The notes beneath the pieces are model-generated. The model ran no database searches. It saw nothing but the letters and a program-made list of their open reading frames with translations, and was not told the DNA's origin. Positions 12,111 through 61,636 of a DNA stretch of 64,000 nucleotides are shown here, one piece after another (the stretch's first letter is position 1; every line of letters begins with the position of its first letter). The translations under genes were made by a program, and so were the position numbers. The stretch is taken from positions 6,720,001 through 6,784,000 of the forward strand of contig CBDDPY010000002.1 of assembly GCA_965232515.1 (NCBI GenBank), read 5' to 3'. Source of the DNA: Alphaproteobacteria bacterium. GTDB taxonomy: Bacteria > Pseudomonadota > Alphaproteobacteria > GCA-2731375.

Positions 12111-12917
<807 letters not shown>

Positions 12918-12951
12918 TTGCCTTGCGTTTTCCTCCCGTTAGCGCCGCTGC

Positions 12952-13398
12952 TTAAGGCAAGTCCTTCAACACCTCGTCCGGATGATCGGCGGGCGTCACC
13001 TTGGCATAGACCTTGGCGATGCGGCCTTCCGGATCGATCAGATAGCTGATTCGCGCAGGATATTGCGCGTCCGCTGAGTCGGCCGCCCCATAGGTCATGC
13101 TGATGGCGCGGTCCTCGTCGCACAACAGATCGTAGGGAAAGCCGAACTTTTCTTGAAACGCCCGGTTCTCCGCCGGCGTATCGCAGCTGATCCCGAGCAC
13201 GATGGCGTTCTTGGCTGTGAAGTCTTGGATTCGATCACGGAACCCTTTGCCTTCAATGGTTCAGCCGGGGGTGTCAGCCTTCGGATACCACCAGAGAACG
13301 ACGTAGTGCCCCCGATACTGATCCAGTGAGGTCTGAATCCCCTGCTGGTTCGGCAGCGAAAAGGCGGGGGCGACATCCGCCTCATTCAACAAAGCCAC
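12952..13398 (-). CDS. BCP/PrxQ-type peroxiredoxin with in-frame TGA (probable selenocysteine) at the peroxidatic position, 148 aa
   Basis: AAGGAG RBS, GTG at 13398. Manual translation MALLNEADVAPAFSLPNQQG...VVLWWYPKADTPG-[TGA 13263-13261]-TIEGKGFRD continues in frame into track ORF 12952..13200 (GISCD, FPYDLLCD, RISYLIDPEG). Confidence 0.88.
13219..13254 (-). promoter_or_regulatory. Candidate bacterial SECIS hairpin 3' of the UGA
   Basis: After TGA-ACCATT: GAAG-GCAAA-GGGTTC-CGTGATC-GAATCC-AAGA-CTTC. GAAG/CTTC lower stem, GGGTTC/GAATCC upper stem, G near the start of the apical loop. Confidence 0.6.
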
Positions 13399-13499
13399 GC
13401 GAGTCTCCTTTCCATTGTTGACGAGATAGAAACAAAAGATAATTGAACAAAAACAGTAATTTAAAAGCTTGTTCTCATGTTTTATCGAAGTTTGACGAC

Positions 13500-13748
13500 T
13501 TAGCCGTCATCCGGCGTTTCCAAGCGGATGGCGAACGGGATGCCGTCAGCCGTGCCACGCAAGACAACGGCTGGGTTGCCGCCTGCGATCGCGGTGTCAC
13601 CTGGGGCTGGCGTTGCCTGAGGCGTGGATTCGGCCTCACGGGCATCCGCGCCGGCGAACAGGTCATCGAACTGTTTTCGGCTCTCCGCCAAGAGGCTGTC
13701 GAAGGCGTCCGACATGCCGCCAACGTTGCTGTCCGAATCAGACGCCAT
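13500..13748 (-). CDS. Small acidic hypothetical protein (82 aa) with an amphipathic helix
   Basis: ATG 6 nt after the isochorismatase stop; GC-typical codons; segment FDSLLAESRKQFDDLF resembles the N-terminal extension of the gene at 20009. Confidence 0.55.
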   Translation of the reverse strand: MASDSDSNVGGMSDAFDSLLAESRKQFDDLFAGADAREAESTPQATPAPGDTAIAGGNPAVVLRGTADGIPFAIRLETPDDG

Positions 13749-13754
13749 CGGTTT

Positions 13755-14465
13755 TCAGGCGTCCACCTTGGGGCGTTCGTTCCACCAGCGCTGGAAGTTT
13801 TCGTTCGCGGTGCCGCCTAGACCGGCGCTCGCCACCTGCTTGATGTACCCCAGCGCTTCGTCGGCCGAGACCACGTCGCAGTATTTGGCGTCGAGGTCGA
13901 AGAGGTTCGCCTCGTGCGGTCCGTCGGCCCGGTCGCCGACGGCCTCGCGCACCACGATGGTGAGATAGCCGCTCTGCATCGAGTCGAGCGCCGAGGCGCG
14001 GACGCAGCCGCTGGTCGTGCAGCCCGTGACGATGACCGTGTCGACTCCCTGCGATTTCAGGTAGGCGTCGGCGTCGGTGCCGAAGAACGCGCTGGCGAAT
14101 TTCTTCTCGACAACATATTCGCCGGGCTGCGGCCGGAGGCGGTCGTCGATCTCGACCATGTGCGAGCCGCGCCGCAGGATCGACAGCGACGGCACTTTCT
14201 TGATGAACACGCCGGCGTCGCGATAGTCGGCGTCATAGGCCGTGGTCGTATAGACGATTGGCAGGCCGCCGAGCCGGAACGCCGTCAACAGGTCCTTCGT
14301 GACCGCGATCTCGTTCGTGAGATCGCCGCCGAGCGGGGTCGACGGGTCGGTGAAGCCGTTGATGAAATCGACGATCAGCAGCGCCGGCTTCTGGCCGTAG
14401 CCCGAGCGGACGGCGAAGCCCTTCTGCTCATAGTCGTCCCGCGTGCCGCGCTGCCAGTCGTTCAT
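13755..14465 (-). CDS. Isochorismatase-family cysteine amidohydrolase (N-carbamoylsarcosine amidase/maleamate amidohydrolase-like)
   Basis: GGGAGG RBS; PALLIVDF, KKFASAFFGT and GCTTSGCVRAS give the D-K-C triad; HEANLFDLDAKYCDV. Confidence 0.9.
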   Translation of the reverse strand: MNDWQRGTRDDYEQKGFAVRSGYGQKPALLIVDFINGFTDPSTPLGGDLTNEIAVTKDLLTAFRLGGLPIVYTTTAYDADYRDAGVFIKKVPSLSILRRGSHMVEIDDRLRPQPGEYVVEKKFASAFFGTDADAYLKSQGVDTVIVTGCTTSGCVRASALDSMQSGYLTIVVREAVGDRADGPHEANLFDLDAKYCDVVSADEALGYIKQVASAGLGGTANENFQRWWNERPKVDA

Positions 14466-14658
14466 CACCCACCTCCCGATTACCGTCCGGCAATCATGCC
14501 CCAGCCGCGGGGCATTTTGAAAGCCGTTGTTCGTCCAACCGACGTCGCCGCCACGACGGAATTGTCGTTTGTGCTTGGCAAGGGCGGCGCGAGGCCGGAA
14601 ACTTGGGCCCCAACCCAAGAAGTCAATCAAGCAAAACTGGGTTTCCGGAGGCCAACAG

Positions 14659-15732
14659 ATGAGTGAAGAGTCCTACGACAACCGTTCCCCACGGCCGGCG
14701 GCGCACGGCCTCGGCGGCAAATCCGCCCTCGGGCCGCGCTACCGGCCGAGCTCGCTGGTGACCTCGCGCGGGCCGTCGGCGCTGTCCGCCGGCAGCCGCC
14801 AGTCCGCCGTCAGCGGCCGCAAGGAAATCTTCTGCGCCTTCGGCATCGACGTCGACGCGGTGGCCGGCTGGCTCGGCTCCTATGGCGGCGAAGACTCGCC
14901 CTGCGACATCTCCCGCGGCCTGTTCTCGGGCGAGGTCGGCACGCCGCGGCTGGTGCGGCTGTTCGACCGCATGGGAATCAAGACCACCTGGTTCATCCCC
15001 GGCCATTCCGTCGAAACCTTCCCCGAGCAGTGCAAGATGGTGGTCGACGCCGGCCACGAGATCGGCATGCATGGCTACAGCCATGAAAATCCCATCGCCA
15101 TGACGCCCGAGCAGGAAGAGGCCGTCATGGATAAGTGCATCGAGCTGATCGAGCGCCTGTGCGGCCGCCGCCCGACCGGTTATGTGGCGCCGTGGTGGGA
15201 GTTCAGCCCGGTCACCAATGAGCTGCTGCTGTCGAAAGGCATCAAGTACGACCACAGCCTGATGAACAACGACTTCCAGCCGTTCTACGTGCGGGTGGGG
15301 GACAGCTGGACGCCGATCGACTATTCGAAGCACCCGGACGAGTGGATGCGGCCGCTGGTGCGCGGCCAGGAGACCGATCTGATCGACATCCCCGGCAGCT
15401 GGCATCTCGACGATCTGCCGCCGATGATGTTCATCAAGTCGGCGCCGAACAGCCACGGCTTCGTCAATCCGCACGATGTCGAGGCCTACTGGCGCGACCA
15501 GTTCGATTGGGTCTATCGGGAGTACGACTACGCGGTCTACACGCTGACGATCCATCCCGACGTCTCGGGCCGGCCGCACGTGCTGATGATGCTGGAGCGC
15601 CTGTTCGAACATATCTCCAGCCATCCGGGCGTGCGCTTCTGCACCTTCGATGAAATCGCCGACGACTTCGCGCAGCGCTTCCCGCGCGGCTCCGTCGACA
15701 ACATCGAAGCGGCCTCGCTGGCGCAACGCTAG
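14659..15732 (+). CDS. Polysaccharide deacetylase-family (PuuE/HP0310-like) metal hydrolase with a ~50-aa N-terminal extension
   Basis: GGAGG RBS; [18 protein letters not shown]; [11 protein letters not shown]; GYVAPWWE; [10 protein letters not shown]. Confidence 0.9.
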
Positions 15733-15743
15733 GGCCGGGCGCT

Positions 15744-16079
15744 ATGTGCAGCCTCTGCGGCGTGCTCGGCGGCCGGGGCCACTGGACGGAAACGGCCAGC
15801 AACCCGGACGCTTTCCAGAGCCGCGCCGAGACCCATACCTGGCATCGTGAGCGGCAGACCCGAACGCGGCTCGTCAACGCGGTGCTGCGGCACTACGGGC
15901 TCAAGCTTGATGACTGGTCGGGCAACGCCTACATGCTGCGCAGCAAGACCGGCCGCACGGCGCTGGTCGACAACCTGACCGAGGTCTGGACCGCGGCCGA
16001 GCAGATCGGCCGCGGGGTCTGCGACCCGCTCGACGAGGACTTGCTGGCGTCCTTGTCCGATTCCGGGTCGGCGCGATGA
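15744..16079 (+). CDS. Small putative metal-binding protein (N-terminal CxxC)
   Basis: MCSLCG...HW...CDPLD; between the deacetylase and CobW genes, ATGA-coupled to the latter. Confidence 0.75.
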   Translation: MCSLCGVLGGRGHWTETASNPDAFQSRAETHTWHRERQTRTRLVNAVLRHYGLKLDDWSGNAYMLRSKTGRTALVDNLTEVWTAAEQIGRGVCDPLDEDLLASLSDSGSAR

Positions 16080-17128
16080 CCGACTATGCCGCCCTGATCC
16101 CGATCAACGTGATCACCGGCTTTCTCGGCAGCGGCAAGACCAGCCTGCTGCAGCGGCTGCTGGCCTCGCCAAGCCTGTGCGATACAGCGGTGCTGGTGAA
16201 CGAGTTCGGCGAGGTCGGGCTCGACCACCAACTGCTGCAGCATGTCGCCGAGAGCACGCTGCTGCTGGACAACGGTTGCCTGTGCTGTGCCGTGCGCGGC
16301 GATTTGCAGGACTCGTTGCGGCAGCTTTTCTCGCAGCGCGAGCGCGCCGAGATCTCGCCGTTCCGCCGGGTCGTGATCGAGACATCCGGCCTCGCCGATC
16401 CCGTGCCGATCGCCTACACCATCTTGGCCGAGCCGGTGATCCAGCATCATTTCCGTCTCGGCAACGTGGTCACCACCATCGACGCGGTGAATGGCGGACA
16501 GCAACTCGACGCCTACCCGGAATCGGTGAAACAGGCAGCCATCGCCGACCGCGTGGTCGTGACCAAGACCGATCTGGACGAGGAGGGACGTTTCGGCGCC
16601 CTGGAGCATCGCCTCCGGCAACTCAATCCGTCGGCGCCGGTGATCCGCGCGGCGGACGGGGTGCTGGACCCCGAACAGCTCCTGGCCCAGGACGTCTACG
16701 ATGCCGACAGCAAGCAGCGGGACGTCGAAGACTGGCTCGCCGCCCACACGGTGTCGACCGAAAACCAGGGTGGCCACGACCATACACACGGCGTCGCGTC
16801 GTTCTGCCTGACCTTCGATGCGCCGCTCGACTGGACGGCGTTCGGCATCTGGATGACCATGCTGCAGCACCGGCATGGCGAGAACGTGCTGCGTATCAAG
16901 GGCATGCTGAACGTCGCGGGTCAGTCGGCGCCGGTGCTGATCAATGGCGTCCAGCACATCGTGCACCCGCCGACCCATCTCGACGCCTGGCCCGATGCCG
17001 ACCACCGCTCGCGCATCGTTTTCATCACGCGCGGCCTCGACCAGGCGCGCATCGAAGCCTCGCTTGCCGCCTTCAACCGGTTGGCAAATCCCGTCGCGGC
17101 GCGGATGCCCGTCGACGCCTTGGCCTGA
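16076..17128 (+). CDS. CobW/COG0523 G3E GTPase metallochaperone
   Basis: GFLGSGKT; NEFGE; GCLCC; IETSG; TKTD; LRIKG; His-containing linker. Confidence 0.93.
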   Translation: MTDYAALIPINVITGFLGSGKTSLLQRLLASPSLCDTAVLVNEFGEVGLDHQLLQHVAESTLLLDNGCLCCAVRGDLQDSLRQLFSQRERAEISPFRRVVIETSGLADPVPIAYTILAEPVIQHHFRLGNVVTTIDAVNGGQQLDAYPESVKQAAIADRVVVTKTDLDEEGRFGALEHRLRQLNPSAPVIRAADGVLDPEQLLAQDVYDADSKQRDVEDWLAAHTVSTENQGGHDHTHGVASFCLTFDAPLDWTAFGIWMTMLQHRHGENVLRIKGMLNVAGQSAPVLINGVQHIVHPPTHLDAWPDADHRSRIVFITRGLDQARIEASLAAFNRLANPVAARMPVDALA

Positions 17129-17136
17129 TTAGACGA

Positions 17137-17664
17137 TCAGCTTGAAGGTCCGGGTGTCGTCATCCGCGGCGGCGGCCGTCGCGGCGTCCAGCCCGTGCGG
17201 AAGGCTCGGACCACGAAGTGCAGCAGGTAGAAGATCACCGCCAGGATCACCAGCAGGATGATCGACAACAGCTTGCTGCCGAATTCGGCATCGACGATGG
17301 CGCCGCGGCTCATCAGATGCTCGCTCAGCACCTCGATGGCCTGAATGGTGGCGCCGGCGCAAAAAATCACCGCGATCAGGATGGCGATCTGCAACGTGTC
17401 GAAGACCAGGGTTTCCACATTCAGCTGGCCGCTGCTGTGGAAGATATTTTTCCGAAACGACTGCCAGTGCGCGATGGCATAGCCGATGACGCCGACCAGC
17501 GAGGCGAACCAGAAGATCACGTTGCTGAAGCGGATATTCGGAATGTGCTCGACCAGATAAGTCTCGAACGGCTGATAGAAGTAGAGAAAGATCAGCAGGA
17601 TAATGACGCCGCCGAGGACGATCCAAAACCGCGGCCGCTCAGAATGTTCCTGTTCCTCGGACAT
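17137..17664 (-). CDS. Uncharacterised 4-TM membrane protein (paralog of 32588..33058)
   Basis: Four hydrophobic segments; shares FLYFYxPFE, FxNxIFW, HW and DAEFGxxL with 32588..33058. Confidence 0.8.
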   Translation of the reverse strand: MSEEQEHSERPRFWIVLGGVIILLIFLYFYQPFETYLVEHIPNIRFSNVIFWFASLVGVIGYAIAHWQSFRKNIFHSSGQLNVETLVFDTLQIAILIAVIFCAGATIQAIEVLSEHLMSRGAIVDAEFGSKLLSIILLVILAVIFYLLHFVVRAFRTGWTPRRPPPRMTTPGPSS

Positions 17665-17937
17665 GGGCTGTTCTTCGCCTCGTTGGTTACCGGCAGGGAT
17701 CGTATACGAAATCCCGCGCCCGTCAAAAGCGCTTCACCGATGCCCCTGACTCGCCCGCGCCGAACCTGCAAGACGTAAATCAGATTGACCGGATGACGCG
17801 CGTTGGTGATCATTCGGGAAACGATAAATCCGCGGAGGCGTTTCTTGCTGGTTTCGGATTATCCGACAACCGCCCTGGGCGGTGCGTGTTCGGTGCGCGT
17901 GCGCGTCGACCTGACGTGGGCGACGTAAGGACGGAGC

Positions 17938-19995
17938 ATGACCAGTCGTCTCTGTATCGATGTTGGCGGGACATTCACCGATCTGTTGCTGGTCGACGAC
18001 GACAGCGGTCGGCGGACGCATCTGAAGACGCCGACGACGCCGGGCGATCCGGCGGCGGGAATCCTGAGCGGTATCGAGCAGATCACGGTCGAGGCCGGCG
18101 TCGCCGCGGCGGAGATCGGCGCGGTGCTGCACGGGTCAGGCTTGGCCGTCGACGCGGTGCGGCGGAAGACGGGCGCCAGGGTCGGCCTGCTGGTGACGCA
18201 AGGCTTCGAGCATCTGCTGCACCTGGCGCGCGCGCGGACGCCGGCGCCCATGGGCGGCTGGACGACGATGAAAAAGTCGGCGCCGCTCGCCGACATCGAA
18301 TTCACGCACGGCGTGACTGAACGCATCAACGCGCGCGGCGACGTGGTGACGCCGCTCGACGAGGCCAAGGCGCGCGCCGCCGTGCGCGCGTTGTTGGACG
18401 CCGGCGCCGACTCAATCGTCGTCGCATTCCTGCACGCCCATGCCAACCCCGCGCACGAGCAGCGGGTCAAGGCCCTGGTGGCGGAAATGGCTGCCGATAT
18501 GCCGGTGGCGCTGTCGTCCGAGATGTCGTCGCGGCACGGCGAGTACGAGCGCACGCTGGTCGCGGTGATGAACGCCTATCTGCGGCCTGGCATGCAGCGC
18601 TACCTGGACGACATCGAGACGAAGCTGCGCGGCGCGGATGTGGCGGCGCCGATCAGCATGATCCGTCCGGACGGCGGGCGCATGGCCGCGATCTATGCGA
18701 CCGAGCGGCCGGCCCAGACCATGCTGTCGGGTCCCGCCGCCGCCGTGTCCGCCGCCGCCGCGGCAGCGGCGCAGGCCGGACACCAGAATGCGATCAGCTT
18801 CGACATGGGCGGCACGTCCACCGGTGTCGCGGTCATCCGCGACGGCGAAAGCCAGACTGGTTCGCACATGACGTTCGCCGACGATGCCGTTGCCGTACCG
18901 TCAATCGACATGCGCAAGATCGGCCGGGGCGGCGGGGCGGTCGCCCATGTCCCGGTGACGGGCGCCCTGCGGGTCGGGCCCGAGGGCGCCGGCGCCGTTC
19001 CCGGCCCGGCCTGTTATGGTCGGGGCGGCGACCGGCCGACGTTGACCGATGCCAACGCCGTTCTGGGCCGCCTGCCGGGAACGCTGCTCGGCGGCCGGAT
19101 GCCGCTCGACACCCGCGCCGCCGAGGAAGCGATGGGCAAGCTCGCCCGGACGCTCGGTCTCGACACCTATCAGACGGCCCTCGCCATCGTCGACGTCTGC
19201 AACGAGGATCTGGCGGGCGAGGTGCGGCTGGCCGCGGTGGCGCACGGGCTGGACACCGGCGATATGGCGATGGTCGCCGGCGGCGGCGCCGGACCGATGC
19301 ATGCCGTCGCACTGGCGCGGCTGATCGGCTGTTATCCGGTTATCGTGCCGCCGACGCCCGGCCTGCTGTCGGCATGCGGCTTTCTGAACGCCGACATTCG
19401 CCATGAATGCGGTCGCGCTGTCATGCGCCTTGTCGACGAGATCGACAGCGCCCGTTTCGGTGACGTGCTCGACCGGCTGGCGGCCGACGCCACCGCGCTG
19501 CTCGAGGCCGAGCAGGTGGAACCCGCGGCCCGGTCGCTGCGGTTCGAGGCGGACCTGCGATATCTCCGTCAAGGCAGCGAATTCACGTTCACCGTCGAGC
19601 CGGCCGGTCTGCGCAACGGCGGTCTTCAGGATCTCGCCACACGCTTCGCGGCGGCACACGAGCGGCGGCACGGCGTCAAGCTCGATCAACCGATCGAGCT
19701 GCTGGCGATCCGCGCCATTGGCCTAGGTCGGACGGCGCAGCCGTCTGATGCGACCGTCGAGGCGGGTGGACCTGACGCCTCGGCCGCCATTGTCGACCAG
19801 CGCCAGGTCTATTTCGATCAGGGGTTTGTCGCGACTGACATCTACGACCGGGCTTTGCTGCGCGCGGGCAACCGCCTGATCGGACCGGCGATCGTCGAGC
19901 AGGCGGACGCGACCACGGTCGTGCATCCGGGGCATGTCGCCGAGGTCGATGCGCACGGCAACATGCTCATCCGGCCCGAGGCCGTTCGGCACTAG
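17938..19995 (+). CDS. Hydantoinase A/5-oxoprolinase ATP-binding subunit (HyuA-like), with divergent motifs
   Basis: IDVGGTFTD; SGPA; DMGGTST; PGPACYGRGG; GAGPMHA; GPAIVEQ..ATTVV. Confidence 0.9.
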   Translation: MTSRLCIDVGGTFTDLLLVDDDSGRRTHLKTPTTPGDPAAGILSGIEQITVEAGVAAAEIGAVLHGSGLAVDAVRRKTGARVGLLVTQGFEHLLHLARARTPAPMGGWTTMKKSAPLADIEFTHGVTERINARGDVVTPLDEAKARAAVRALLDAGADSIVVAFLHAHANPAHEQRVKALVAEMAADMPVALSSEMSSRHGEYERTLVAVMNAYLRPGMQRYLDDIETKLRGADVAAPISMIRPDGGRMAAIYATERPAQTMLSGPAAAVSAAAAAAAQAGHQNAISFDMGGTSTGVAVIRDGESQTGSHMTFADDAVAVPSIDMRKIGRGGGAVAHVPVTGALRVGPEGAGAVPGPACYGRGGDRPTLTDANAVLGRLPGTLLGGRMPLDTRAAEEAMGKLARTLGLDTYQTALAIVDVCNEDLAGEVRLAAVAHGLDTGDMAMVAGGGAGPMHAVALARLIGCYPVIVPPTPGLLSACGFLNADIRHECGRAVMRLVDEIDSARFGDVLDRLAADATALLEAEQVEPAARSLRFEADLRYLRQGSEFTFTVEPAGLRNGGLQDLATRFAAAHERRHGVKLDQPIELLAIRAIGLGRTAQPSDATVEAGGPDASAAIVDQRQVYFDQGFVATDIYDRALLRAGNRLIGPAIVEQADATTVVHPGHVAEVDAHGNMLIRPEAVRH

Positions 19996-20008
19996 GGGCG
20001 CGGGCGCA

Positions 20009-22081
20009 ATGACAGAACAGAACACGCCCGCCCATCCGGTCTCGCTCGACGACCTGCTGCGGTCGAACAAGGATCAGTTCGACAAGGTCTTCGACACCCA
20101 GATGCGCCGCATCGACGTCGGCGGTACGACCTATACGCCGGCCGCCGAAGAGGCGCCGCCGCCCAAGGTGGTCGTTGCGGCCGAACAGGAAAGCGAAATG
20201 CCGTCGGCGTCGCCGTCCGGCCAGGAACCGGTGCTGGCGCTCGCCGCGCCGGAGACGCTCACGCGCGTCGAGGCCCGGCCGAGCGCGGACGTGGATCCGG
20301 AGCGCGCGCCGGACGCGATCTCGCTTGATCTGGTCGAGGGCGCGTTGCGGAACGCCCGGCGCGAGATGGACGCCGCTCTGCGGTGGCAGGCCATCTCGCC
20401 GGCGATCCGCGACCAGCATGACGCGTTTCCGACGCTTGCCGACGCCGAGGGCCGAATGCTCGCCGGTTCGTTCGGCGGCTTTCTGCGGGACATGTTGCAG
20501 CAGCAGATGCCGGATCTGCAGCCGGGCGACGTGATCCTGCAGAGCGACCCCTACCGCAGCGACGGCGCGGTTGGCCACGTGAACGACTGGCTGGTGCTGA
20601 TGCCGGTGTTCTACGGTGACGTGCCGGTCGGGTTCAGCGCCATGTGCGGCCACATGGTCGACGTCGGCGGGCCGGTGCCCGGCAGCCTGCCGACCTCGGC
20701 GACCTCGATCTTCGGCGAAGGCATCCGCATCCCGCCGATCAAGCTCTACGCGGGCGGTGAGCCGAACCGGGCCGTGCTCGACCTGTTATGGAATAACACC
20801 CGGACGCCCGACCTGAACTACGCCGATCTGATGGCGCTGGTTGCCGCCTGCCGGGTCGGCGAGCGGCGCCTGATCGAGATCTGCGACCGCTTCGGCGTGG
20901 CGCCTTTCCGGCGCGCCGGCGAGGCGCTGCGCGAACGCACGAAACGCACCCTGCGGCGCCTGATCGTCCAATATCTGCCCGAGGAACCGCAGTCGTTCGA
21001 GGACCATATCGACAGCGACGGACGGGGGAACGGGCCGTTCAAGATCAAGCTGACGGTCTGGCGCGAGGGCGAGCAGGCCTTCTTCGACTGGACCGGAACG
21101 GCCGCCCAGGCGCCGGGGCCGGTCAACTTCTATCTGCATGACGGTCTGTTTAAATCCGTCGTCGGCGCCTATTTGAGTCGGGCGGTCGATCCGCGTATCC
21201 AGCTCAACGATGCATTCTACGATCTGATCCACGTTACCCTGCCGAAGGGCTCGTTGCTGCGCCCGACATTTCCAGCAGCGCTTGGCGGACGCGCGCATGC
21301 CATGTCGCGGCAGTTCGACGTGCTGACGGGCGCCATGAGCCGCACCATGCCCCGCGAGGCGACGGCGGCCGGCTGCGGCTCCAGCCCGCAATTCCGCTTC
21401 GCCGGGATCGATCGCGACGGTCGACCCTTCCAGTTCGCGGATCACGTTTTCGGCGGCATTCCCGGCCGGCCCGTCGCCGACGGCATCGACGGCCATGCCT
21501 GGCAACCGATGGCCGAGACCGCGCCCGTCGAAACTCTCGAAAGCTGCTATCCTGTCATCGTCGAGCGTTGCGGCGCGGTGCCGGACTCCGGCGGGGTTGG
21601 ACAGCATCGCGGCGGCAACGGGGTGGAGAAGGTCTACCTGCTGCTCGAGACGGGGGAGGTGTCAATTCACGACGATCGCGAGCGCACGCAGCCCTGGGGT
21701 ATTGGGGGCGGCGGGCCGGGCGCCAGTTCGGCGAAGTGGATCGAGCGGAAGGACGGCGAGCGCGCGCCGCTGCCGTCGAAGATTGATCGTCTCAAGGTGC
21801 GCAACGGCGACCGCATTATCTTCCGCACCGCCGCCGGCGGCGGCTGGGGCGATCCGCTGGAGCGCGATCCGGTTCGGGTCCGTAAAGATGTGGTCCGCGG
21901 CCTCGCGACCGCCGAAGCGACGCGGGCGGCCTACGGCGTCGTGCTGACAGAGGACGGCCTTGAGATTGACATCGGCGCGACCGAGGAGTTGCGAGACGAA
22001 AAGCGCCGGAACCGGCGACCGACGTCGGCATTCGACTTCGGTGAGCGGCGGCGCGACAATGGCGACACGGATACGAGTTGA
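20009..22081 (+). CDS. Hydantoinase B/oxoprolinase subunit (HyuB-like) with a ~95-aa N-terminal extension
   Basis: GDVILQSDPY..GHVND; GHMVDVGG; EGIRIPPIK; DSGGVGQHRGG; GGGWGDPLERDP. Confidence 0.9.
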   Translation: MTEQNTPAHPVSLDDLLRSNKDQFDKVFDTQMRRIDVGGTTYTPAAEEAPPPKVVVAAEQESEMPSASPSGQEPVLALAAPETLTRVEARPSADVDPERAPDAISLDLVEGALRNARREMDAALRWQAISPAIRDQHDAFPTLADAEGRMLAGSFGGFLRDMLQQQMPDLQPGDVILQSDPYRSDGAVGHVNDWLVLMPVFYGDVPVGFSAMCGHMVDVGGPVPGSLPTSATSIFGEGIRIPPIKLYAGGEPNRAVLDLLWNNTRTPDLNYADLMALVAACRVGERRLIEICDRFGVAPFRRAGEALRERTKRTLRRLIVQYLPEEPQSFEDHIDSDGRGNGPFKIKLTVWREGEQAFFDWTGTAAQAPGPVNFYLHDGLFKSVVGAYLSRAVDPRIQLNDAFYDLIHVTLPKGSLLRPTFPAALGGRAHAMSRQFDVLTGAMSRTMPREATAAGCGSSPQFRFAGIDRDGRPFQFADHVFGGIPGRPVADGIDGHAWQPMAETAPVETLESCYPVIVERCGAVPDSGGVGQHRGGNGVEKVYLLLETGEVSIHDDRERTQPWGIGGGGPGASSAKWIERKDGERAPLPSKIDRLKVRNGDRIIFRTAAGGGWGDPLERDPVRVRKDVVRGLATAEATRAAYGVVLTEDGLEIDIGATEELRDEKRRNRRPTSAFDFGERRRDNGDTDTS

Positions 22082-22164
22082 GGACGACGGCCGATAATGG
22101 GCGTGCGTGAATTGCGTTTTCAAACGCGCGGCAGAGCAACGACAAAAAGACGGGTGCTGGGGAC

Positions 22165-24981
22165 ATGTACGAGATCGGAATATCACTGCTGATTGCGGCG
22201 ATCGTTGTTATCGCGATCGTCTACATCATCTCCATCTGGATCTATAAACGCGCGCCGGCCAACATGGGCTTCATTCGGACCGGCTTCCTCGGCACCAAAG
22301 TGTGTCTCGGCCGCGGCGCCATCGTGCTGCCGGTGTTCCATGAGGTCACCTGGATCTCGCTCGAGACCATCAAGCTGATCGTCAGCCGCTCGCGCGACCA
22401 GGCGATCCTGACCTCGGACAAGATCCGCGTCGATGTCGTCGCCGAGCTCTATGCCCATGTCGGCCATAGCGAGGACGCGCTGCTGACCGCCAGCCGCAGC
22501 CTGGGCGAGAAGACCTTCGATCCGGAAAAGGTCCGCAACCTGCTGGAAGCGAAGGTGGTGAGCGCGCTGCGCAGCTACGCGGCGACGAAGACGTTGACCG
22601 AGCTGCACGAGAACCGCGATGCCTTCGCGCAGGAGATCAAGGCGAATGTGCTGGAGAGCTTCAGCGCCAACGGTCTCATGCTCGAAGAGGTCACGATCGT
22701 GACCATGGAGCAGTCGTCGAAGGAATACTTCAAGACCGACAACGTGTTCGACGCCGAGGGCCTGAAGATCATCACCGAGATCACCTCGGACGCCCGCCGG
22801 CGCGTGCATGACACCGAGAAAAAGACCACGGTCGCTATCCGCCAGAAGGATCTGGACACGCAGCTCGAGCTGCTCGAGATCGAGCGGCAGGAGGCCTTCG
22901 CGCGCGCCGATCAGGACAAGTCTGTCGCCAACGAGCAGGCGCTGCAGCTCGGCCAGAAGCAGATCTACGTGCTGGACCAGCGCATGGCCGTCGAAGAAAA
23001 GGAGATCGAGAACGACAAGAACCTCGAACGGCTGCGCACGGAACGCGATGTCGCGGTCACCGAGGAGGCGAAGAAGCGCGAGATCGCCGAGATCCAGAAG
23101 GCCCTGGCGTTGGAGCAGGAGCGGCGCGACCGCGAGATCGCCATCATCGCCAAGGCCGAGCAGGAGGAGCTCGCCAATATCGGCCGCAATCTGTCGCTGG
23201 AGAAGGCCGAGAAGGATCGCGAAATCGAGCTGATCGGGAAGGCGAAGCAGGAGGAACTGGCCGAGATCCAGCGCGGGCTCGAGCGCGAGCGTGCCGAGAA
23301 GGACCGCGAGATCGAGCTGACTGAGAAGGAGCGCGAGCGGCAACAGGCCGAGATCCAGCGCGTCACCGCCGTGACCGAGGATGAAGAAGTCGCGCGCGAC
23401 AAGCGGCACCAGGTCGCCGAAGCGACAGCGCTCGCCATGCGCAAGCGCAGCCTCGAAACCAAGCTCGCCATGCTGAACATCGACAAGGACGAGGCCGTGG
23501 CGGCCGCCGTGCAGCAGCAGGAAGTCTCTCACGAGAAGGCCCGCGTGCTGAGCGAGCAGCAGCGTTTCGTGCTGGAGCAGCGCTGGCAGGTCGAGAAGGA
23601 GGAGATCGAGAAAGCGCTGGCGCTGGAGAAGGCGCAGATCAACAAGGAAGCCGCGATCCTCGAGGAGTCGAAAGTGCGCGAGGCGGCCGAGATCCGTCGC
23701 ACGCTCGCCCGCGAGCAGGAGGAGCGGGACCGCGAGATCGCGCTCGTGGCCAAGGCCGAGGAGCTGGAGCGCGCGGAGATCCGCCGGGCGCTGGCCCGCG
23801 AGCAGGAGGAGCGCGACAGCCAAGTGGCGCTGGTCGCCAAGGATGGCGAGGTCCGCCGGGCCGAGGTGCAGCAGACGCTGCAGGTCGAGATGGCCGAGCG
23901 CGACCGCGAGATTTCGCTGATCTCCAAGGAACAGGAGCGCGAAAAGGTGGATATCCAGCGCTTCCTGGCGCGCGAGGTCGAGGAGCGCAACCGCGAGATC
24001 GTGCTGGTCGACAAGACCCGCGAGCTGGAGGAGGTCGAGGCGAAGCGGCTGCAAACCACGGCCGAGAAGGAGCGGGCCGAGCATGCGGTCCAATCGGTGC
24101 GCCAGCGGGCCGATGCCGAGCTGTCGAAGGAGATCGATTTGATCTCGGCGGCGAAGCTGGCCGAGAGCCGGCGGATCGACGAGGAAAACAAGGCTCAGAT
24201 TACGCGCATGCACATGCTGACTCAGTCGGAGGCCCGCAAGGCCGCGGCGCAGCAGGAATCGGAGGCGACGCTGATTCGGGCGCGGGCCACCAGCGAGGCT
24301 CAGAAGATCACCGCCGACGGCATCGAGCGCGAGGCCGGCGCCAAGGGCCGCGCCGAAGCGGAGATCGAGGCGCTCAAGGCCGACAACGCCAAGCGCATGC
24401 TGGAGGCCGAGGCCAGCGGCATCGAGGCCAAGGCCGACGCCTTGAAGAAGTACAACGACGCCGCGACATTCCTGGAGCTCGCGAAGCTGCACATCGAGGC
24501 CGAGCGCGATATCCATATCGATCAGGCCAAGGCGATGGGCAACGCGTTGTCGGGCGCGCAGATCCGCATGTATGGCGGCGGCGACGGCACGGTCGACACC
24601 ATTCGCGGCATGTTCACCTCCGGCTTCGGCCTGGGCGAGGCGCTGGAAGGCGTGGCCCAGTCGTTGCCCGAGGGCATTCGCGAGCGCTTTGCCGAGAACG
24701 GCATCCGCGGCCTGTTCGGTCGTCCCGGCGGCAACGGCGAGTTCCGCCAGTCGGTCGCGCGGCTGGCCGAGCTGGTGCAGAGCAACATGCGCTCGCGCAA
24801 GGCGCGCGAGGTGCCGTTCAAGGACGCCATGGCGACGCTGCAGGCGCAGGTCGGCGACGACGCGGCGGCGGGCCGCGCGCTGACGGTGTTGAACGAGCTC
24901 AACGCCAACGGCACCTTCGACGAGGTGCCGTTCGAGAGCGTCTGGTCGCTTCTGCAGGCGACGATGAAGGCGGCGGATTGA
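22165..24981 (+). CDS. Very long SPFH/flotillin-family protein (938 aa) with 29-aa helical repeats
   Basis: N-terminal TM; SPFH core (IRTGFLG, GAIVLPVFHE, LTSDKIRVDVVAELY, ALRSYAA, NVFDAEGL); ~580 aa of E/R/K/A-rich helix; flotillin-like AEAEA/KADALKKYN end. Confidence 0.88.
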   Translation: MYEIGISLLIAAIVVIAIVYIISIWIYKRAPANMGFIRTGFLGTKVCLGRGAIVLPVFHEVTWISLETIKLIVSRSRDQAILTSDKIRVDVVAELYAHVGHSEDALLTASRSLGEKTFDPEKVRNLLEAKVVSALRSYAATKTLTELHENRDAFAQEIKANVLESFSANGLMLEEVTIVTMEQSSKEYFKTDNVFDAEGLKIITEITSDARRRVHDTEKKTTVAIRQKDLDTQLELLEIERQEAFARADQDKSVANEQALQLGQKQIYVLDQRMAVEEKEIENDKNLERLRTERDVAVTEEAKKREIAEIQKALALEQERRDREIAIIAKAEQEELANIGRNLSLEKAEKDREIELIGKAKQEELAEIQRGLERERAEKDREIELTEKERERQQAEIQRVTAVTEDEEVARDKRHQVAEATALAMRKRSLETKLAMLNIDKDEAVAAAVQQQEVSHEKARVLSEQQRFVLEQRWQVEKEEIEKALALEKAQINKEAAILEESKVREAAEIRRTLAREQEERDREIALVAKAEELERAEIRRALAREQEERDSQVALVAKDGEVRRAEVQQTLQVEMAERDREISLISKEQEREKVDIQRFLAREVEERNREIVLVDKTRELEEVEAKRLQTTAEKERAEHAVQSVRQRADAELSKEIDLISAAKLAESRRIDEENKAQITRMHMLTQSEARKAAAQQESEATLIRARATSEAQKITADGIEREAGAKGRAEAEIEALKADNAKRMLEAEASGIEAKADALKKYNDAATFLELAKLHIEAERDIHIDQAKAMGNALSGAQIRMYGGGDGTVDTIRGMFTSGFGLGEALEGVAQSLPEGIRERFAENGIRGLFGRPGGNGEFRQSVARLAELVQSNMRSRKAREVPFKDAMATLQAQVGDDAAAGRALTVLNELNANGTFDEVPFESVWSLLQATMKAAD

Positions 24982-32587: not shown

Positions 32588-33058
32588 TTAGGCCTCGGTC
32601 TGCTTCGCCGGGCGGATGATCTTCAAGAGCCAGAAGATGATGCAGAAAATCCCGGTCAGGATGATCAGGGCCACGACCGCGGCGAGGCGCTTGCCGAACT
32701 CAGCGTCGAGCGTGTAGCCCGGCTGCAACAGATAGACGCAGAGCACCTGCACCGACTGCAGCGTCGCGCCGCCGCTCAACAGGATGGCGACGAAGGTGGA
32801 GCCGCGCAGCGAACTCAGGACCACGGACTCGATGCTGTTCTGCTGCACGATATGCACTCGGTAGGCGTGCCAGTGGTAGGTGCAGAAGCCGATGATGCCG
32901 ACGATCAGCGCGACCCAGAAGATCGCGTTGTCGAAGCCGACGCCGTGGATCACGGTGTTGAACAGGTCTTCGAACGGCTTATAGAAGTATAGAAAAATCA
33001 GAACGATGATGAAGACGATGTAGCCGACCAGCGTCCAGAACCACTGCCACCCTGTCAT
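32588..33058 (-). CDS. Uncharacterised 4-TM membrane protein (paralog of 17137..17664)
   Basis: FLYFYKPFE; FDNAIFW; YHW; GATLQ; DAEFGKRL. Confidence 0.8.
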   Translation of the reverse strand: MTGWQWFWTLVGYIVFIIVLIFLYFYKPFEDLFNTVIHGVGFDNAIFWVALIVGIIGFCTYHWHAYRVHIVQQNSIESVVLSSLRGSTFVAILLSGGATLQSVQVLCVYLLQPGYTLDAEFGKRLAAVVALIILTGIFCIIFWLLKIIRPAKQTEA

Positions 33059-57404: not shown

Positions 57405-58964
57405 TCAGCGGAGCCGGGCGAGGCCGTTGGCGAGGATGCGGCGCTTGTGTTCGGGGAAGTCGAAGGCGCGGCGGAAATCGGCTTCCGAGAAGTCGGGCCA
57501 CTGCCGGTGGAGACGGGCGAGGATGCGGCGGCCTTCGTCGAGGCGGCCGGCGAGGCCCTGGCAGCAGGCCGCCATGAACAGCACATGCGCATGCGCCTCG
57601 GCGGCGCCGGCGGCCTGCGCGGCGTAGTCGGCGGCGGTGTCGTAGTCGCCCCGCGCGACGGCGTGGCCGGCATAGGCGATCTGGTAGGCGAACAGCAGCG
57701 GGTCGTAGGGCGAGAGGCGGCAGGCGCGGTCGAGATGCTGGATGCCGAGGTCATGTTCGCCGGAGAACTGCAGCACGTTGCCGTAGGCGAAATGGCCGTT
57801 GGCGAAGTTGGCGGCGAGCTCGGTGGTGGTGCGTAGCGTCGCGATCGCCGCCGGATAGTCCTGGGCCAGCATCTGCGCGCGGCCGAGCACCCAGTGGCCG
57901 TGCGGCTCGAGCGGGTCGAGGCTGAGCGCCTCGCGGGCATGTTCGAAGGCGCGGGCGAGCGCGGCGTCGCGGTCTGATGTGAAGCCGAGCAGCGCGCGCT
58001 GCCAGTGCACGAAGGAGCGGGCGGCGGCGATCCGGGCCGAGGCGGGGTCCGCGGCGCCGGCCCGGTCGAGCAGGGTTTGGGCGCGGTCGAGGCCGTCCCC
58101 GCGGAAGCTGAACATGTGCGGATGGGCGCGGTGGAAGAGCGTCCAGGCGTCGAGCGCGGTGATCGGCTGCCGCATGGCGCGGCGGCGCTCGGTGCGGTCG
58201 ATCTCGCTCTCGACGGCGGCGGCCACGCGGTCGGTCACGTCGAGCTGCATGACCGGCATGTCGTCGAGCGGGTGATCGAAGCGGTCGGCCCAGACCGTCT
58301 GCCCGGTCGTGGCGTCGAGCAGCGAGAGATCGAGCGACAACCGGCGCGGCGCGAAGGTGGCGCAGCCGTCGAGCAGGTAGCGGACGCCGAGCGCGCGGGC
58401 GATGGGGGCCGGATCGCGGGTCTCGCGCCACAGCACCGAGACCGAGCCGCGGGCGGTGACGAAGAGCCAGCGGATGCGGGCGAGCGCGATATTGACGTCG
58501 CGCGCGATCGCCTCCTCGGCGCCGGGGTGAAGCGACGCGTCGCCCGCCCGCTCGAACGGCAGCACGGCGATGGACGGCCGCGTCGGCAGCGGCAGGCCCG
58601 CGGGCGCCTCGGGCGGGCTCGCCGGCACGGCGGCCGGCGATGGCGGCGTCTCGTCGAGACGGGTGACGGGCGGCACCAGGCGGAGGCCGCGGCGCGGCGC
58701 GGTCGCGATCAGGCGCTGCGCGCGACCGCTGTCGCCAAGCGCGCGCCGGGCGCGGCTGACGCAGGCGTCGATGGCGGCTTCCGACACGACGCGGCCGTGC
58801 CAGAGGCGCTCGACCAGCACCGCGCGGGGCACGAGCTCGCCGCCATGCTCCGCCAGCAGGCACAACAGGTCGAAGACCTTCGGCTCGACGGCGGTCTCCG
58901 CCGCGCCGACGCGCAGCCGGTGGCGCTCGGTGTCGAGTTCGCAATGACCGAAACGATAGATCAC
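57405..58964 (-). CDS. OmpR-type wHTH + TolB-N-like + TPR transcriptional regulator, copy 1
   Basis: MIYRFG.CELD; EPKVFDLL; ARRALGDSG..QRLI.T.PRRG; RPSIAVLPF; LGVRYLLDG; RLSPYDP. Confidence 0.88.
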   Translation of the reverse strand: MIYRFGHCELDTERHRLRVGAAETAVEPKVFDLLCLLAEHGGELVPRAVLVERLWHGRVVSEAAIDACVSRARRALGDSGRAQRLIATAPRRGLRLVPPVTRLDETPPSPAAVPASPPEAPAGLPLPTRPSIAVLPFERAGDASLHPGAEEAIARDVNIALARIRWLFVTARGSVSVLWRETRDPAPIARALGVRYLLDGCATFAPRRLSLDLSLLDATTGQTVWADRFDHPLDDMPVMQLDVTDRVAAAVESEIDRTERRRAMRQPITALDAWTLFHRAHPHMFSFRGDGLDRAQTLLDRAGAADPASARIAAARSFVHWQRALLGFTSDRDAALARAFEHAREALSLDPLEPHGHWVLGRAQMLAQDYPAAIATLRTTTELAANFANGHFAYGNVLQFSGEHDLGIQHLDRACRLSPYDPLLFAYQIAYAGHAVARGDYDTAADYAAQAAGAAEAHAHVLFMAACCQGLAGRLDEGRRILARLHRQWPDFSEADFRRAFDFPEHKRRILANGLARLR

Positions 58965-59096: not shown

Positions 59097-60650
59097 TCAG
59101 TTCAGGCGGGCGAGGCCGTCGGCGAGCGCGCGGCGCTGGGGTTCGGGGTAGGCGTAGGCGCGTGCGAAGTCGGCTTGGCCGAAGTCCCGATGCCGGTCGC
59201 GAAGGCGGGCGAGCATGCGGCGGCCGGCGTCGACGCGGCCGGCGAGGCCCTGACAGCAGGCGGCCATGAACAGCACGTAGGCGTGCGCCTCGGCGTCGGC
59301 GGCGGCCTGGGCGGCGTGGTCCGCGGCCGCGTCGTGGTCGCCCCGGGCCAGCGCGTGGCCGGCATAGGCGATCTGATTGGCGAACATCAGCGGGTCGTAG
59401 GGCGACAGCCGGCAGGCGCGGTCGAGATGCGCGATGCCGAGGTCGTGGTCGCCCGAGAACTGCAGCACGTTGCCGTAGGCGGCGTGGCCGTTGGCGAAGC
59501 TGGCGGCGAGCTCGGTCGTGGTGCGCAGCGTCGCGGCCGCCGCCGGGTAATTCTGGGTCAGCATCTGCGCGCGGCCGAGCACCCAGGGGCCGGTGGGCTC
59601 GAGCGGGTCGAGGTGAAGCGCCTCGCGCGCATGCTCGAAGGCGCGGGCGAGCGCGGCCTTGCGGTCGGCGGCGTGGCCGAAGAGCGCGCGCTGCCGCTGG
59701 ACGAACGAGCGGGCGGCGGCGATCCGCGCCGACGTGGGATCGGCGGCGGCGGCCCGGTCGAGCAGCGCCTGCGCGCGGTCGAGGGCGTCGCCGCGAACGT
59801 CGAACAGGTGCGGGTGGGCGCGGTGAAACAGCGTCCAGGCGTCGAGCGCGGCGATCGGCTGTTGCATGGCGCGGCGGCGCTCGGTGCGGTCGATCTCACT
59901 GACGACGGCGGCGGCGACCCGCTCGCTGACGTCGAACGGCAGGATCGGCATGTCGTCGCGCGGGTGATCGAAACGGTCGGCCCAGACCGTCTCTCCGGTC
60001 GTGGCATCCAGTAGCGAGAGGTCGAGCGACAACCGGCGCGGCGCGAACCTGGCGCGGCCGTCGAGCAGGTAACGGACGCCGAGCGCGCGGGCGATGCGGG
60101 CGGGATCGTGGGTCTGCCGCCACAGCACCGAGACCGAGGCGCGGGCGGTGACGAAGAGCCAGCGGATGCGCGAGAGCGCAATGGTGACGTCGCGTGCAAT
60201 TGCGTCTTCGGCGCCCGGGTCGATCGATGCGTCGCCCGCCCGTTCGAAGGGCAGGACGGCGATGGACGGCCGCGCCGACGGCGGCAGATCCCGCGGCGGC
60301 TCCCGCGGGCTCTCCGGCGTCGACGGCGGCCGCGTCTGGCCGATGCGGACGACCGGCGGCACAAGGCGCAGGCCGCGCCGGGGCACGGTTTCGATCAGGC
60401 GCTGCGCGCGGCCGCTGTCGCCGACGGCCCGCCGGGCGCGGCTGATGCAGGCGTCAACGGCGGCCGCCGTGACGATCCGCCCCTGCCAGAGGCGCTCGAT
60501 CAGCGACGCGCGGGAGACGAGGTCGCCGCCGTGCTCGGCCAGCAGGCACAGCAGGTCGAAGATCTTCGGCTCGACGGCGGCGTCCGCCGCGCCGACGCGC
60601 AGCCGGCGGCGCCCGGTGTCGAGCTCGCAAGGGCCGAAACGATAGATCAC
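59097..60650 (-). CDS. OmpR-type wHTH + TolB-N-like + TPR transcriptional regulator, copy 2
   Basis: Colinear with copy 1, with long identical stretches. Confidence 0.88.
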   Translation of the reverse strand: MIYRFGPCELDTGRRRLRVGAADAAVEPKIFDLLCLLAEHGGDLVSRASLIERLWQGRIVTAAAVDACISRARRAVGDSGRAQRLIETVPRRGLRLVPPVVRIGQTRPPSTPESPREPPRDLPPSARPSIAVLPFERAGDASIDPGAEDAIARDVTIALSRIRWLFVTARASVSVLWRQTHDPARIARALGVRYLLDGRARFAPRRLSLDLSLLDATTGETVWADRFDHPRDDMPILPFDVSERVAAAVVSEIDRTERRRAMQQPIAALDAWTLFHRAHPHLFDVRGDALDRAQALLDRAAAADPTSARIAAARSFVQRQRALFGHAADRKAALARAFEHAREALHLDPLEPTGPWVLGRAQMLTQNYPAAAATLRTTTELAASFANGHAAYGNVLQFSGDHDLGIAHLDRACRLSPYDPLMFANQIAYAGHALARGDHDAAADHAAQAAADAEAHAYVLFMAACCQGLAGRVDAGRRMLARLRDRHRDFGQADFARAYAYPEPQRRALADGLARLN

Positions 60651-60866: not shown

Positions 60867-60900
60867 AAATGTCAGGGCTCCGTAAGGTCGTTGTCAAGCG
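60867..60900. promoter_or_regulatory. 11-bp-periodic direct-repeat operator, copy C
   Basis: TGTCAGG-N4-CGTAAGG-N4-TGTCAAG at 60870, 60881 and 60892, after an A-rich tract. Confidence 0.6.
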
Positions 60901-61021
60901 GCGGGCCGGGGGGCGGCTTAGGGTCCGCACCAGATGTACCAACTGGAGATTTTGCGTGATGTACGAAAACCGATACCGCGATGGGCGTCCCGGCGCCCTG
61001 CGTAAGCGGCTGTTGCGCCAT

Positions 61022-61636
61022 ATGGGACGGCTCCTGGCCGTTCCCGCCGCGGCGCTTGCCTTCCTCGCCACGCCGGCGGCGGCGATCACCTACCAGATCG
61101 ATCTCGATTTCGGCGGCGGGGCATTCCTGACCGGCAGCATCGAGACCGACGGCACGCTGGGCGCGTTCGACGGGTTGGGCGAATTCGTCGACTGGTCGCT
61201 CGACATCTCGGACGGCGTCAACACTGGCTCGTTTGATGGCAGCGACCAGTATCTCTACAGCAGCACGGTCGCCGGAGATCCCGGCGCCTGGTTCGCAACC
61301 GAGACGTCGCTGAGCTTCGATTTCGTCAATCTGTTCGGCGCCGAGGCGGCATTTGCCAAATCGACCGGAGACTTCTTTCCGCAGATCGGGTTCTGCGCCG
61401 TCGACGTCCCCTGTCCCAGTGTCGCCGCCGGCCTCGGCCCGGCGGTCACGATGATCTTTAATCTTCCGAACCAGGACCCGAACCAGGCCATCACGAGCTT
61501 CGGTTTCGACCGGGCGCTGATCACGGTCGGCGAGGCGGCGCCGGTGTCGCTGCCGGGCACGCTGCCGCTGATGCTGGGCGCGCTCGGCCTCGGCTGGCTC
61601 TGCTGCCGGCCGCGAGCGGCGAGGGCGGCGGCATGA
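61022..61636 (+). CDS. Secreted CTERM-like protein 1 (PVSLPG..WLCCR tail)
   Basis: Signal ending TPAAA; ITY.ID.DFGGGAFLTG.IETDGTLG; start chosen by alignment with paralogs (upstream ATG 60959 also possible). Confidence 0.8.
   Translation: MGRLLAVPAAALAFLATPAAAITYQIDLDFGGGAFLTGSIETDGTLGAFDGLGEFVDWSLDISDGVNTGSFDGSDQYLYSSTVAGDPGAWFATETSLSFDFVNLFGAEAAFAKSTGDFFPQIGFCAVDVPCPSVAAGLGPAVTMIFNLPNQDPNQAITSFGFDRALITVGEAAPVSLPGTLPLMLGALGLGWLCCRPRAARAAA

Follow-up and report, generated by a model that had tools for sequence, protein, structure and literature searches.

A tethered amphipathic helix motif on a small protein and on the N-terminal extension of HyuB: a possible docking element in an alphaproteobacterial catabolic locus

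Encapsulation peptides of bacterial microcompartments (BMCs) occur on, for example, PduP, PduD and EutC, and HflK/C-FtsH and flotillin cages are examples of SPFH scaffolds. One study describes encapsulation peptides as short helices that are attached through disordered linkers, assemble into trimeric bundles, and bring about the co-assembly of cargo (PMC12339742), and two others describe closed, membrane-attached domes or barrels formed by SPFH proteins (10.1101/2024.05.09.593390, 10.1101/2025.04.21.649849). N-methylhydantoinase and N-carbamoylsarcosine amidase carry out, in this order, consecutive steps of N-methylhydantoin breakdown (PMC4417704). Here we analyze a 64,000-nucleotide (nt) stretch of DNA from an alphaproteobacterium (contig CBDDPY010000002.1 of assembly GCA_965232515.1, positions 6,720,001 to 6,784,000 of the forward strand; hereafter the window). 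An earlier note on this DNA had drawn attention to two similar peptides, one in a small open reading frame (ORF) of 82 residues and one in the N-terminal extension of the hydantoinase subunit HyuB, and had proposed a docking or targeting peptide. The comparisons made here indicate that both peptides are translated and under purifying selection, that they represent one sequence motif, and that they sit on flexible tethers. The motif may serve as a docking element.

The likeness to BMC encapsulation peptides, whose design the earlier note had invoked, consists in a short terminal amphipathic helix (about 15-20 residues) whose linker is poorly conserved and in the occurrence of one helix type on several pathway proteins. 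This layout is the part of the proposal that is supported. A shell is not supported, as no BMC shell family (BMC-H/T, BMC-P) and no encapsulin family is among the Pfam matches of the 50 window proteins scanned. The present case differs further from encapsulation peptides in that the motif is distinct and acidic, in that one of the carriers, a free mini-protein, has a second conserved module, and in that it is known here from sequence alone.

The two peptides, FDSLLAESRKQFDDLF in the small ORF and LDDLLRSNKDQFDKVF in HyuB, are located exactly where the earlier note had placed them, and their ungapped alignment reproduces the 7 of 16 identities that it reported, with a BLOSUM62 score of 38. When the small-ORF 16-mer is used as a fixed query against the 50 other proteins of the window (17,368 residues), HyuB is the top match with 38 and the runner-up scores 21. 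Among 5000 shuffled 16-mers, 0.32% score at least 38 against all 50 proteins, and 0.08% do so against the first 60 residues. The DNA segments encoding the two helices are identical at 28 of 48 nt, without an excess at third codon positions, and a recent DNA duplication of the helix is rejected.

The relationship is carried by a profile built from nine distant homologues of the small protein, none of them from the clade of this locus and none of them a HyuB sequence. When the six-frame translation of the window (1169 pieces) is searched with this profile, the small ORF ranks first (E 2e-19) and the HyuB ORF ranks second (full-sequence E 4.5e-5; helix domain 14.9 bits, independent E-value 0.0019), and the third match has an E-value of 0.53. 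With a profile restricted to the helix of the nine distant members, the small ORF scores 29.9 bits (E 2e-8), HyuB 14.2 bits (E 0.0019), and the next piece 5.6 bits. The best reversed decoys reach 2.9 bits with the helix-only profile and 5.8 bits with the full-length one. The order of matches is identical in L001, a contig of a metagenome-assembled genome that is collinear with positions 9860-32062 of the window (its main block of 16 kb has 89% DNA identity) and that is the sole related locus returned by a scan of genome contigs. In profile-profile comparison with hhalign, the close families give a probability of 15.6%, and the enlarged small-protein family compared with the HyuB family gives 61.9% (P 7.6e-5).

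Each of the 13 family members has 5-9 of 16 residues in common with the HyuB helix. Two distant members are the most similar to it (9 of 16), compared with 7 of 16 for the neighboring small ORF. In addition to the hydrophobic positions, the polar positions D2, Q11, and D13 are common to both helices. In either helix, the hydrophobic residues are confined to an arc of 120 degrees, and 11 of the 12 helices examined carry a net charge between -1 and -4 (-3 in the small ORF). We take the shared motif to be real, on about 20 residues of evidence. HyuB shares the helix only and is not a member of the mini-protein family. The second motif of that family, GTAxGIPF, is not found in HyuB, and the profile alignments end within the linker. 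Homology of the small ORF to the whole HyuB extension, as expected from a gene fusion, was considered and rejected: only the helix aligns, the profiles give no support, and HyuB residues 73-101 are by eye unlike GTAxGIPF. The profile searches of the six-frame pieces find no third copy of the motif in the window. In particular, the weaker echoes suggested for the amidase at 34318 (ELKEALEKVF) and the amidase at 13755 (ANENFQRWW) are not borne out, as neither amidase is among the listed profile matches, which extend up to an E-value of about 70.

Judged by its pattern of substitution, the 82-residue ORF is a genuine small-protein gene. It begins 6 nt past the stop codon of an isochorismatase-family amidase gene on the same strand, and it starts either at M1 (13748) or at M12 (13715), the latter being present in all nine clade members. 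Besides the small ORF itself, there are seven homologues of the same length with 67-83% identity, and the syntenic L001 encodes a 77-residue copy. Residues 1-11 are variable. Residues 16-33 are unchanged in 8 of 8 close homologues, except for E/Q at position 22. When compared with L001, the helix module has a ratio of non-synonymous to synonymous substitution rates (dN/dS) of 0.094, with 10.5 synonymous differences in 22 codons. The tether has a dN/dS of 0.60, with in-frame insertions and deletions and a length difference of seven residues, and it is unalignable across the mini-protein family. The core of the C-terminal motif is identical between the small ORF and the L001 copy. Selection at the protein level, the variable linker with in-frame length changes, and the existence of distant homologues all argue that the ORF is translated, as the earlier note had supposed. 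A promoter and terminator scan of positions 12900-15000 returns no more sites than in shuffled sequences, and a search of the ESM Atlas with the small ORF gives no usable match. The small ORF and an extended HyuB appear to lie on one contig in four of the four cases in which the contig is long enough, two of them by inference only (from matching lengths of the longest contig, 107889 and 16407).

HyuB matches PF02538 over its full length (E 3.1e-139, profile positions 1-519 of 519), which corresponds to residues 127-641 of the 715-residue ORF and to residues 102-616 of the 690-residue form, and HyuA is encoded directly upstream. The longer ORF starts at 19934, overlaps the end of hyuA, and is unused in two of three orthologues and in the L001 copy. 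The ATG at 20009 is kept in L001, and two more orthologues have the same 690-residue length and an MS[ED]Q start. The G+C content of the first 32 codons by codon position is 0.59/0.28/0.88, as in the genes of the window, and residues 30-45 show seven synonymous and no non-synonymous changes relative to L001. These features place the start of HyuB upstream of the peptide.

The helix of HyuB (residues 10-29) is preceded by residues 1-9 and is conserved in four of four orthologues. The only changes are R/Q, K/R, and D/E, including those in the most distant orthologue, so the peptide is retained in the orthologues of HyuB as it is in those of the small ORF. Of the three findings that, according to the earlier note, would have refuted its proposal, none was obtained. 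Behind the helix, the two proteins differ. The earlier note had described Pro/Ala/Glu-rich linkers following both peptides, and this holds directly for the small ORF. In HyuB, the 17-residue block DTQMRRIDVGGTTYTPA, of which 12% is Pro, Ala, or Glu and which has no counterpart in the small protein, intervenes between the helix and the linker. Residues 73-101 of HyuB partly align with the inter-domain region of the fused N-methylhydantoinase of PDB entry 7hk5. The extension is confined to 4 protein clusters of 5.8 billion (1126 candidates scored). At the DNA level, a 57-nt run in the HyuB helix codons (20037-20093) is 100% identical to L001 10029-10085, and the flanking codons differ synonymously. 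A search of positions 12800-22300 against Rfam gives no match. The positions of all these elements and of the adjacent genes are listed in Table 1.

Table 1 Positions of the two helix carriers, their modules, and the adjacent genes in the window
Feature	Position	Strand	Remarks
Small ORF, 82 residues	13500..13748	minus	Unnamed mini-protein family
Helix module MSDAFDSLLAESRKQFDDLFAG, residues 12-33 of the small ORF	13650..13715	minus	Contains the 16-mer at 13656-13703
Small-ORF 16-mer FDSLLAESRKQFDDLF	13703-13656	minus	Residues 16-31 of the 82-residue ORF 13500-13748
Pro/Ala-rich variable tether, about residues 34-60 of the small ORF	13569..13649	minus	50% Pro, Ala, and Glu over residues 33-60
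C-terminal module VVLRGTADGIPFAIRLE, residues 61-77 of the small ORF	13518..13568	minus	Predicted beta-hairpin; conserved
Isochorismatase-family amidase, 236 residues	13755..14465	minus	Start MNDWQ; Pfam PF00857, E 1.1e-36
HyuA, hydantoinase/oxoprolinase A subunit	17938..19995	plus	Pfam PF01968, PF05378, PF19278
HyuB, 690 residues	20009..22081	plus	Start separated by 13 nt from the HyuA stop; about 88-101 residues of N-terminal extension
HyuB helix 16-mer LDDLLRSNKDQFDKVF	20045-20092	plus	Residues 13-28 of HyuB from ATG 20009; matches the small-protein helix motif
Conserved block DTQMRRIDVGGTTYTPA, residues 29-45 of HyuB	20093..20143	plus	Nearly invariant in four orthologues
Pro/Ala/Glu-rich variable tether, residues 46-72 of HyuB	20144..20224	plus	56% Pro, Ala, and Glu; dN/dS 0.48 and insertions or deletions relative to L001
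Third conserved block, residues 73-101 of HyuB, into the HyuB core	20225..20311	plus	dN/dS 0.23
Long flotillin, 938 residues	22165..24981	plus	Pfam PF01145; one N-terminal transmembrane segment, SPFH domain, long coiled coil

An exhaustive search of 1.84 billion representative proteins with the family profile of the small ORF gives ten matches at E<=1e-3, namely one close relative, seven proteins of 68-77 residues, and two of 154-168 residues. All ten are built alike: an N-terminal helix with the pattern [SA]xFDxLLxxx+xQxDxL is followed by an unalignable stretch rich in Pro and Ala and, at the C-terminus, by GTAxGIPF. The short forms have a total length of about 68-82 residues, and in the two long forms (154 and 168 residues) a full domain replaces the bare hairpin. 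In 15 family members G65, G69, and F72 are invariant and A67 is nearly so, and the small ORF carries this hairpin motif. No family of Pfam or NCBIfam reaches its curated cut-off with the mini-protein family. PHROGs yields nothing below an E-value of 0.18, and the family profile finds nothing below 0.33 among PDB sequences.

The AlphaFold2 (AF2) model of one long form, P0018, has a mean predicted local distance difference test (pLDDT) score of 78. It consists of helix 9-29, a disordered linker, a further helix, five strands, and a long helix. Helix 9-29, with a block pLDDT of 80-86, is the equivalent of the helix module of the small ORF, and the C-terminal module of the small ORF corresponds in the alignment to two strands of the Rad52-like domain (120-125 and 128-133). 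The top Foldseek matches of the P0018 model are human RAD52 and yeast Mgm101 (E-values in the PDB from 1.2e-3, probability 1.0, template modeling (TM) scores of 0.3-0.66, which are modest). In the viral library BFVD, the matches are phage Rad52/59/22 and Sak3 proteins (best E 2.6e-5), and the neighbors of P0018 in the Atlas are three Pseudomonadota clusters named 'hypothetical protein' (54-127 members), followed by Rad52_Rad22 (0.90) and SSAP_Sak (0.86). The models are suggestive of P0018 belonging to the Rad52/Sak fold. P0018 and P0021, both bacterial and of 154-168 residues, would thus combine the family helix and tether with a predicted Rad52-like domain. The short forms, including that of the window, appear to be remnants or derivatives of a Rad52-fold protein that consist of helix plus hairpin, because GTAxGIPF aligns with the hairpin of that domain. 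The likeness to the Rad52/Sak annealing fold consists in the helix and the GTAxGI[AP]F hairpin that P0018 and P0021 share with the small ORF. The difference is that the small ORF has the hairpin only, without the beta-beta-beta-alpha core domain that resembles the N-terminal domain of RAD52, that no match to Pfam or PHROGs is obtained at the sequence level, and that the TM scores are modest. Nothing indicates a role related to DNA in this catabolic locus. Searches of plasmids with tblastn find no match for P0014, P0016, P0018, P0019, P0021, P0022, or the HyuB extension, and give only chance matches (E 0.8) for the small ORF; a tblastn search of phages with P0018 gives no match.

The enzymes next to the two helices resemble a known pair. 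The nearest solved relative of HyuB is N-methylhydantoinase (PDB 7hk5, E 6.5e-66, match from query residue 89), and that of the amidase is N-carbamoylsarcosine amidohydrolase (PDB 26st, E 6.8e-68; PDB 1nba, E 1.6e-40). The start of the 236-residue amidase agrees with L001 and with homologues. The locus is in this respect like the N-methylhydantoinase/N-carbamoylsarcosine amidase pair of creatinine and N-methylhydantoin breakdown. It differs in that 7hk5 is a fused HyuA-HyuB chain without the extension and in that the solved amidases do not cover the extra C-terminal tail found here; the pathway is a prediction from sequence similarity. The window also encodes a D-hydantoinase/dihydropyrimidinase, a second isochorismatase amidase, an ATP-binding cassette (ABC) importer, a flavin monooxygenase, and a CobW GTPase. 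At the C-terminus of the first amidase (13755-13850, minus strand), a motif with the consensus DDFQRWW, here NENFQRWW, lies behind a variable Gly/Ala-rich stretch and beyond the end of the solved chains. A DDFQRWW-type tail is seen in 60 inspected C-termini of the 120 amidase homologues fetched, and the tail looks like a tethered motif in its own right. ANENFQRWW is therefore rejected as an echo of the helix, being the local form of the amidase family's own C-terminal motif.

We tentatively favor the reading that the helix is a tethered docking element that would bring HyuAB and the small protein into one assembly, and we give it slightly less than an even chance. It is favored because a conserved helix, with both polar and hydrophobic positions retained, sits on a fast-evolving tether, in an enzyme as well as in a free mini-protein of two modules. 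Of the two carriers, HyuB would itself catalyze one pathway step and the small protein is encoded beside the enzyme of the next, so the logic of the pathway fits docking as well. In one narrow clade, HyuB, the predicted B subunit of an N-methylhydantoinase-like, ATP-dependent ring-opening enzyme, has gained a translated N-terminal extension that begins with the family helix motif on a variable tether. The proposed course is as follows. The helix would act as a protein-protein docking element, through which HyuAB and the small protein would join the same assembly. The small protein would be made from the same transcript as the N-carbamoylsarcosine-amidase-like enzyme of the next step, and it may recruit this amidase, as the order of the genes suggests. 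The likely result would be the co-localization of consecutive steps of N-heterocycle breakdown. The candidate partners of the helix are, in order of preference, the helices themselves by mutual bundling in the manner of BMC encapsulation peptides, HyuA, and the flotillin encoded downstream.

Several points weigh against this reading. The raw 16-mer score, taken by itself, lies within the chance range of an all-against-all comparison: a 16-residue window scoring at least 38 is held by 28 of the 1275 pairs of window proteins, and eight shuffled proteomes contain 8-29 such pairs, so the raw match is not beyond chance for a reader who scans everything. Profiles of the close homologues alone give cross-family E-values of 2.1 and 0.25, which are not significant, and the HyuB match comprises about 20 residues and 14-15 bits. 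Because each of the two helices has a net negative charge, simple mutual bundling is not favored. The amidase family is huge (7990 matches), whereas small-protein family members are rare, which excludes the small protein as a general partner of that amidase. As the HyuB extension occurs in only four clusters, its presence together with the small ORF, the amidase, and the flotillin counts as a single evolutionary event. The HyuB helix codons show no synonymous change relative to L001, and constraint at the DNA or RNA level is therefore inseparable there from constraint at the protein level. Finally, the AF2 model of full-length HyuB, made from a four-sequence alignment, has a mean pLDDT of 33.5 and is unusable.

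The frequency of equally high scores in shuffled proteomes and the failure of close-family profiles to detect each other would also be expected if the two helices were unrelated amphipathic helices, with that of HyuB packing on HyuA or HyuB and the small protein doing something else. The sharing of the helix alone, with no GTAxGIPF in HyuB, fits such a coincidence too. We consider it unlikely, though a serious alternative. The distant-member profile places HyuB about 9 bits above all other six-frame pieces and above the reversed decoys, both in the window and in L001, and the hhalign signal grows as diversity is added to the family. Moreover, the similarity extends to the three polar positions, and both helices are N-terminal and tethered.

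The flotillin gene lies 83 nt after hyuB and 16 nt before an ABC ATPase gene and is syntenic in L001. Ordinary plasmid flotillins match only the first 29-38% of the 938-residue protein (residues 28-404). The coiled-coil segments are internally repeated, as seen from the DNA self-similarity at about 22800-23930 in the comparison with L001. The helix might load HyuAB, and the amidase by way of the small adaptor, into or onto an SPFH assembly of this flotillin, giving a membrane-attached catabolic compartment by the ABC importer. This targeting is made attractive by the closed, membrane-attached domes that SPFH proteins build according to the studies cited above. It is consistent with the operon-like arrangement of hyuA, hyuB, the flotillin gene, and the ABC ATPase gene, in which the successive genes are separated by 13, 83, and 16 nt and the flotillin gene is syntenic in L001, and with the finding that the HyuB extension and this gene arrangement both occur only in this clade. 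The likeness to SPFH/flotillin scaffolds is that the flotillin gene lies in the same gene run as the helix-bearing hyuB; the difference is that the link here is one of adjacency and that the flotillin is unusually long, with only its first third ordinary. We regard targeting to the flotillin as improbable, because the evidence for it is adjacency within one lineage and the small-protein family extends to distant members beyond this locus. In addition, a literature search found no paper containing both flotillin and hydantoinase, and in the portions of the literature available to it no client-targeting peptide for SPFH assemblies turned up. The flotillin is thus a candidate partner of the helix by gene adjacency in one narrow clade. 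A more elaborate version, in which the helix loads a membrane-attached SPFH cage that houses an ATP-dependent N-heterocycle metabolon beside the ABC importer, with mini-proteins derived from ring-forming Rad52-fold proteins as free adaptors that load untagged enzymes, would be a long shot.

The presence of one motif on a free protein and on an enzyme would also fit a regulatory decoy, in which the small protein competes with the HyuB helix for one site, for example on HyuA, and tunes the assembly or activity of the ATP-consuming enzyme instead of recruiting the amidase. That the amidase family is so much more common than the small-protein family speaks against the small protein as an obligate adaptor of the amidase and to that extent for the decoy. 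However, the second conserved module, GTAxGIPF, would be left unexplained, and we find such competition quite improbable. An in-plane membrane anchor that binds the bilayer directly, like the targeting sequences of the MinD or FtsA type, would suit a terminal, amphipathic, tethered helix in a locus rich in membrane proteins, but it is very improbable, since 11 of the 12 helices examined are acidic, whereas known bacterial membrane-targeting helices are cationic, and since the conservation of Asp and Gln positions suggests a specific contact with a protein. We give just as little credence to a nucleic-acid element at the 5' end of hyuB, with HyuB starting at Met32 and the peptide not made: the fully identical 57-nt run agrees with it, but the codon-position composition of the first 32 codons, the ATG kept in L001, the two orthologues of the same length and start, the conservative helix changes in the most distant orthologue, the match of an independent protein profile to the helix, and the lack of an Rfam match speak against it.

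If the helix is a docking tag, it would be a new portable targeting code, and it would come with an unannotated mini-protein family that has no Pfam or NCBIfam model. Enzymes outside classical microcompartments would then be wired together by a short tethered helix, the ATP-consuming step being followed by the amidase. The motif also offers a testable handle on why a flotillin gene lies within a catabolic operon, and if flotillin cages are loaded through it, an SPFH assembly would be a bacterial enzyme compartment with its own targeting code. In practical terms, the small ORF is of the type of gene that annotation pipelines miss, and the start site of HyuB matters for expression of the enzyme.

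Several further features of the window are recorded here. Two paralogous proteins with four transmembrane segments and of no known family are encoded on the minus strand at 17137-17664 and 32588-33058, and their best 16-residue window scores 64. The gene at 32588-33058 follows, on the same strand, the genes of a 362-residue multi-pass membrane protein and of the second isochorismatase amidase. An enzyme of the polysaccharide-deacetylase family is encoded at 14659-15732 (plus strand). Its closest solved chain is 3qbu (E 3.6e-147), with the match starting at residue 54. The N-terminal stretch of some 53 residues ahead of this match has a high content of Ser, Gly, Pro, and Arg and, judged by the profile, lacks the helix motif.

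A Bcp-type peroxiredoxin gene is located at 12952-13398 (minus strand), corresponding to L001 2947-3393 (minus strand). It has an in-frame TGA (13261-13263) at the position of the peroxidatic Cys (YPKADTPG-TGA-TIEG). When read through the TGA, it gives a full-length AhpC/TSA match (E 1.3e-32, profile positions 3-123 of 124), and in the L001 gene the same codon is a stop, preceded by eight identical residues. The gene is a candidate for a selenocysteine peroxiredoxin. The hairpin just past the TGA is no better than in shuffled sequences (z -0.33), and the window shows no sel genes. Finally, there are two adjacent pairs of close paralogues. The genes at 57405-58964 and 59097-60650 (both minus strand) encode regulators with an OmpR-type winged helix plus TPR repeats, and those at 60869-61636 and 61633-62241 (both plus strand) encode proteins without a Pfam family. 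The best 16-residue windows of these pairs score 92 and 89, respectively.

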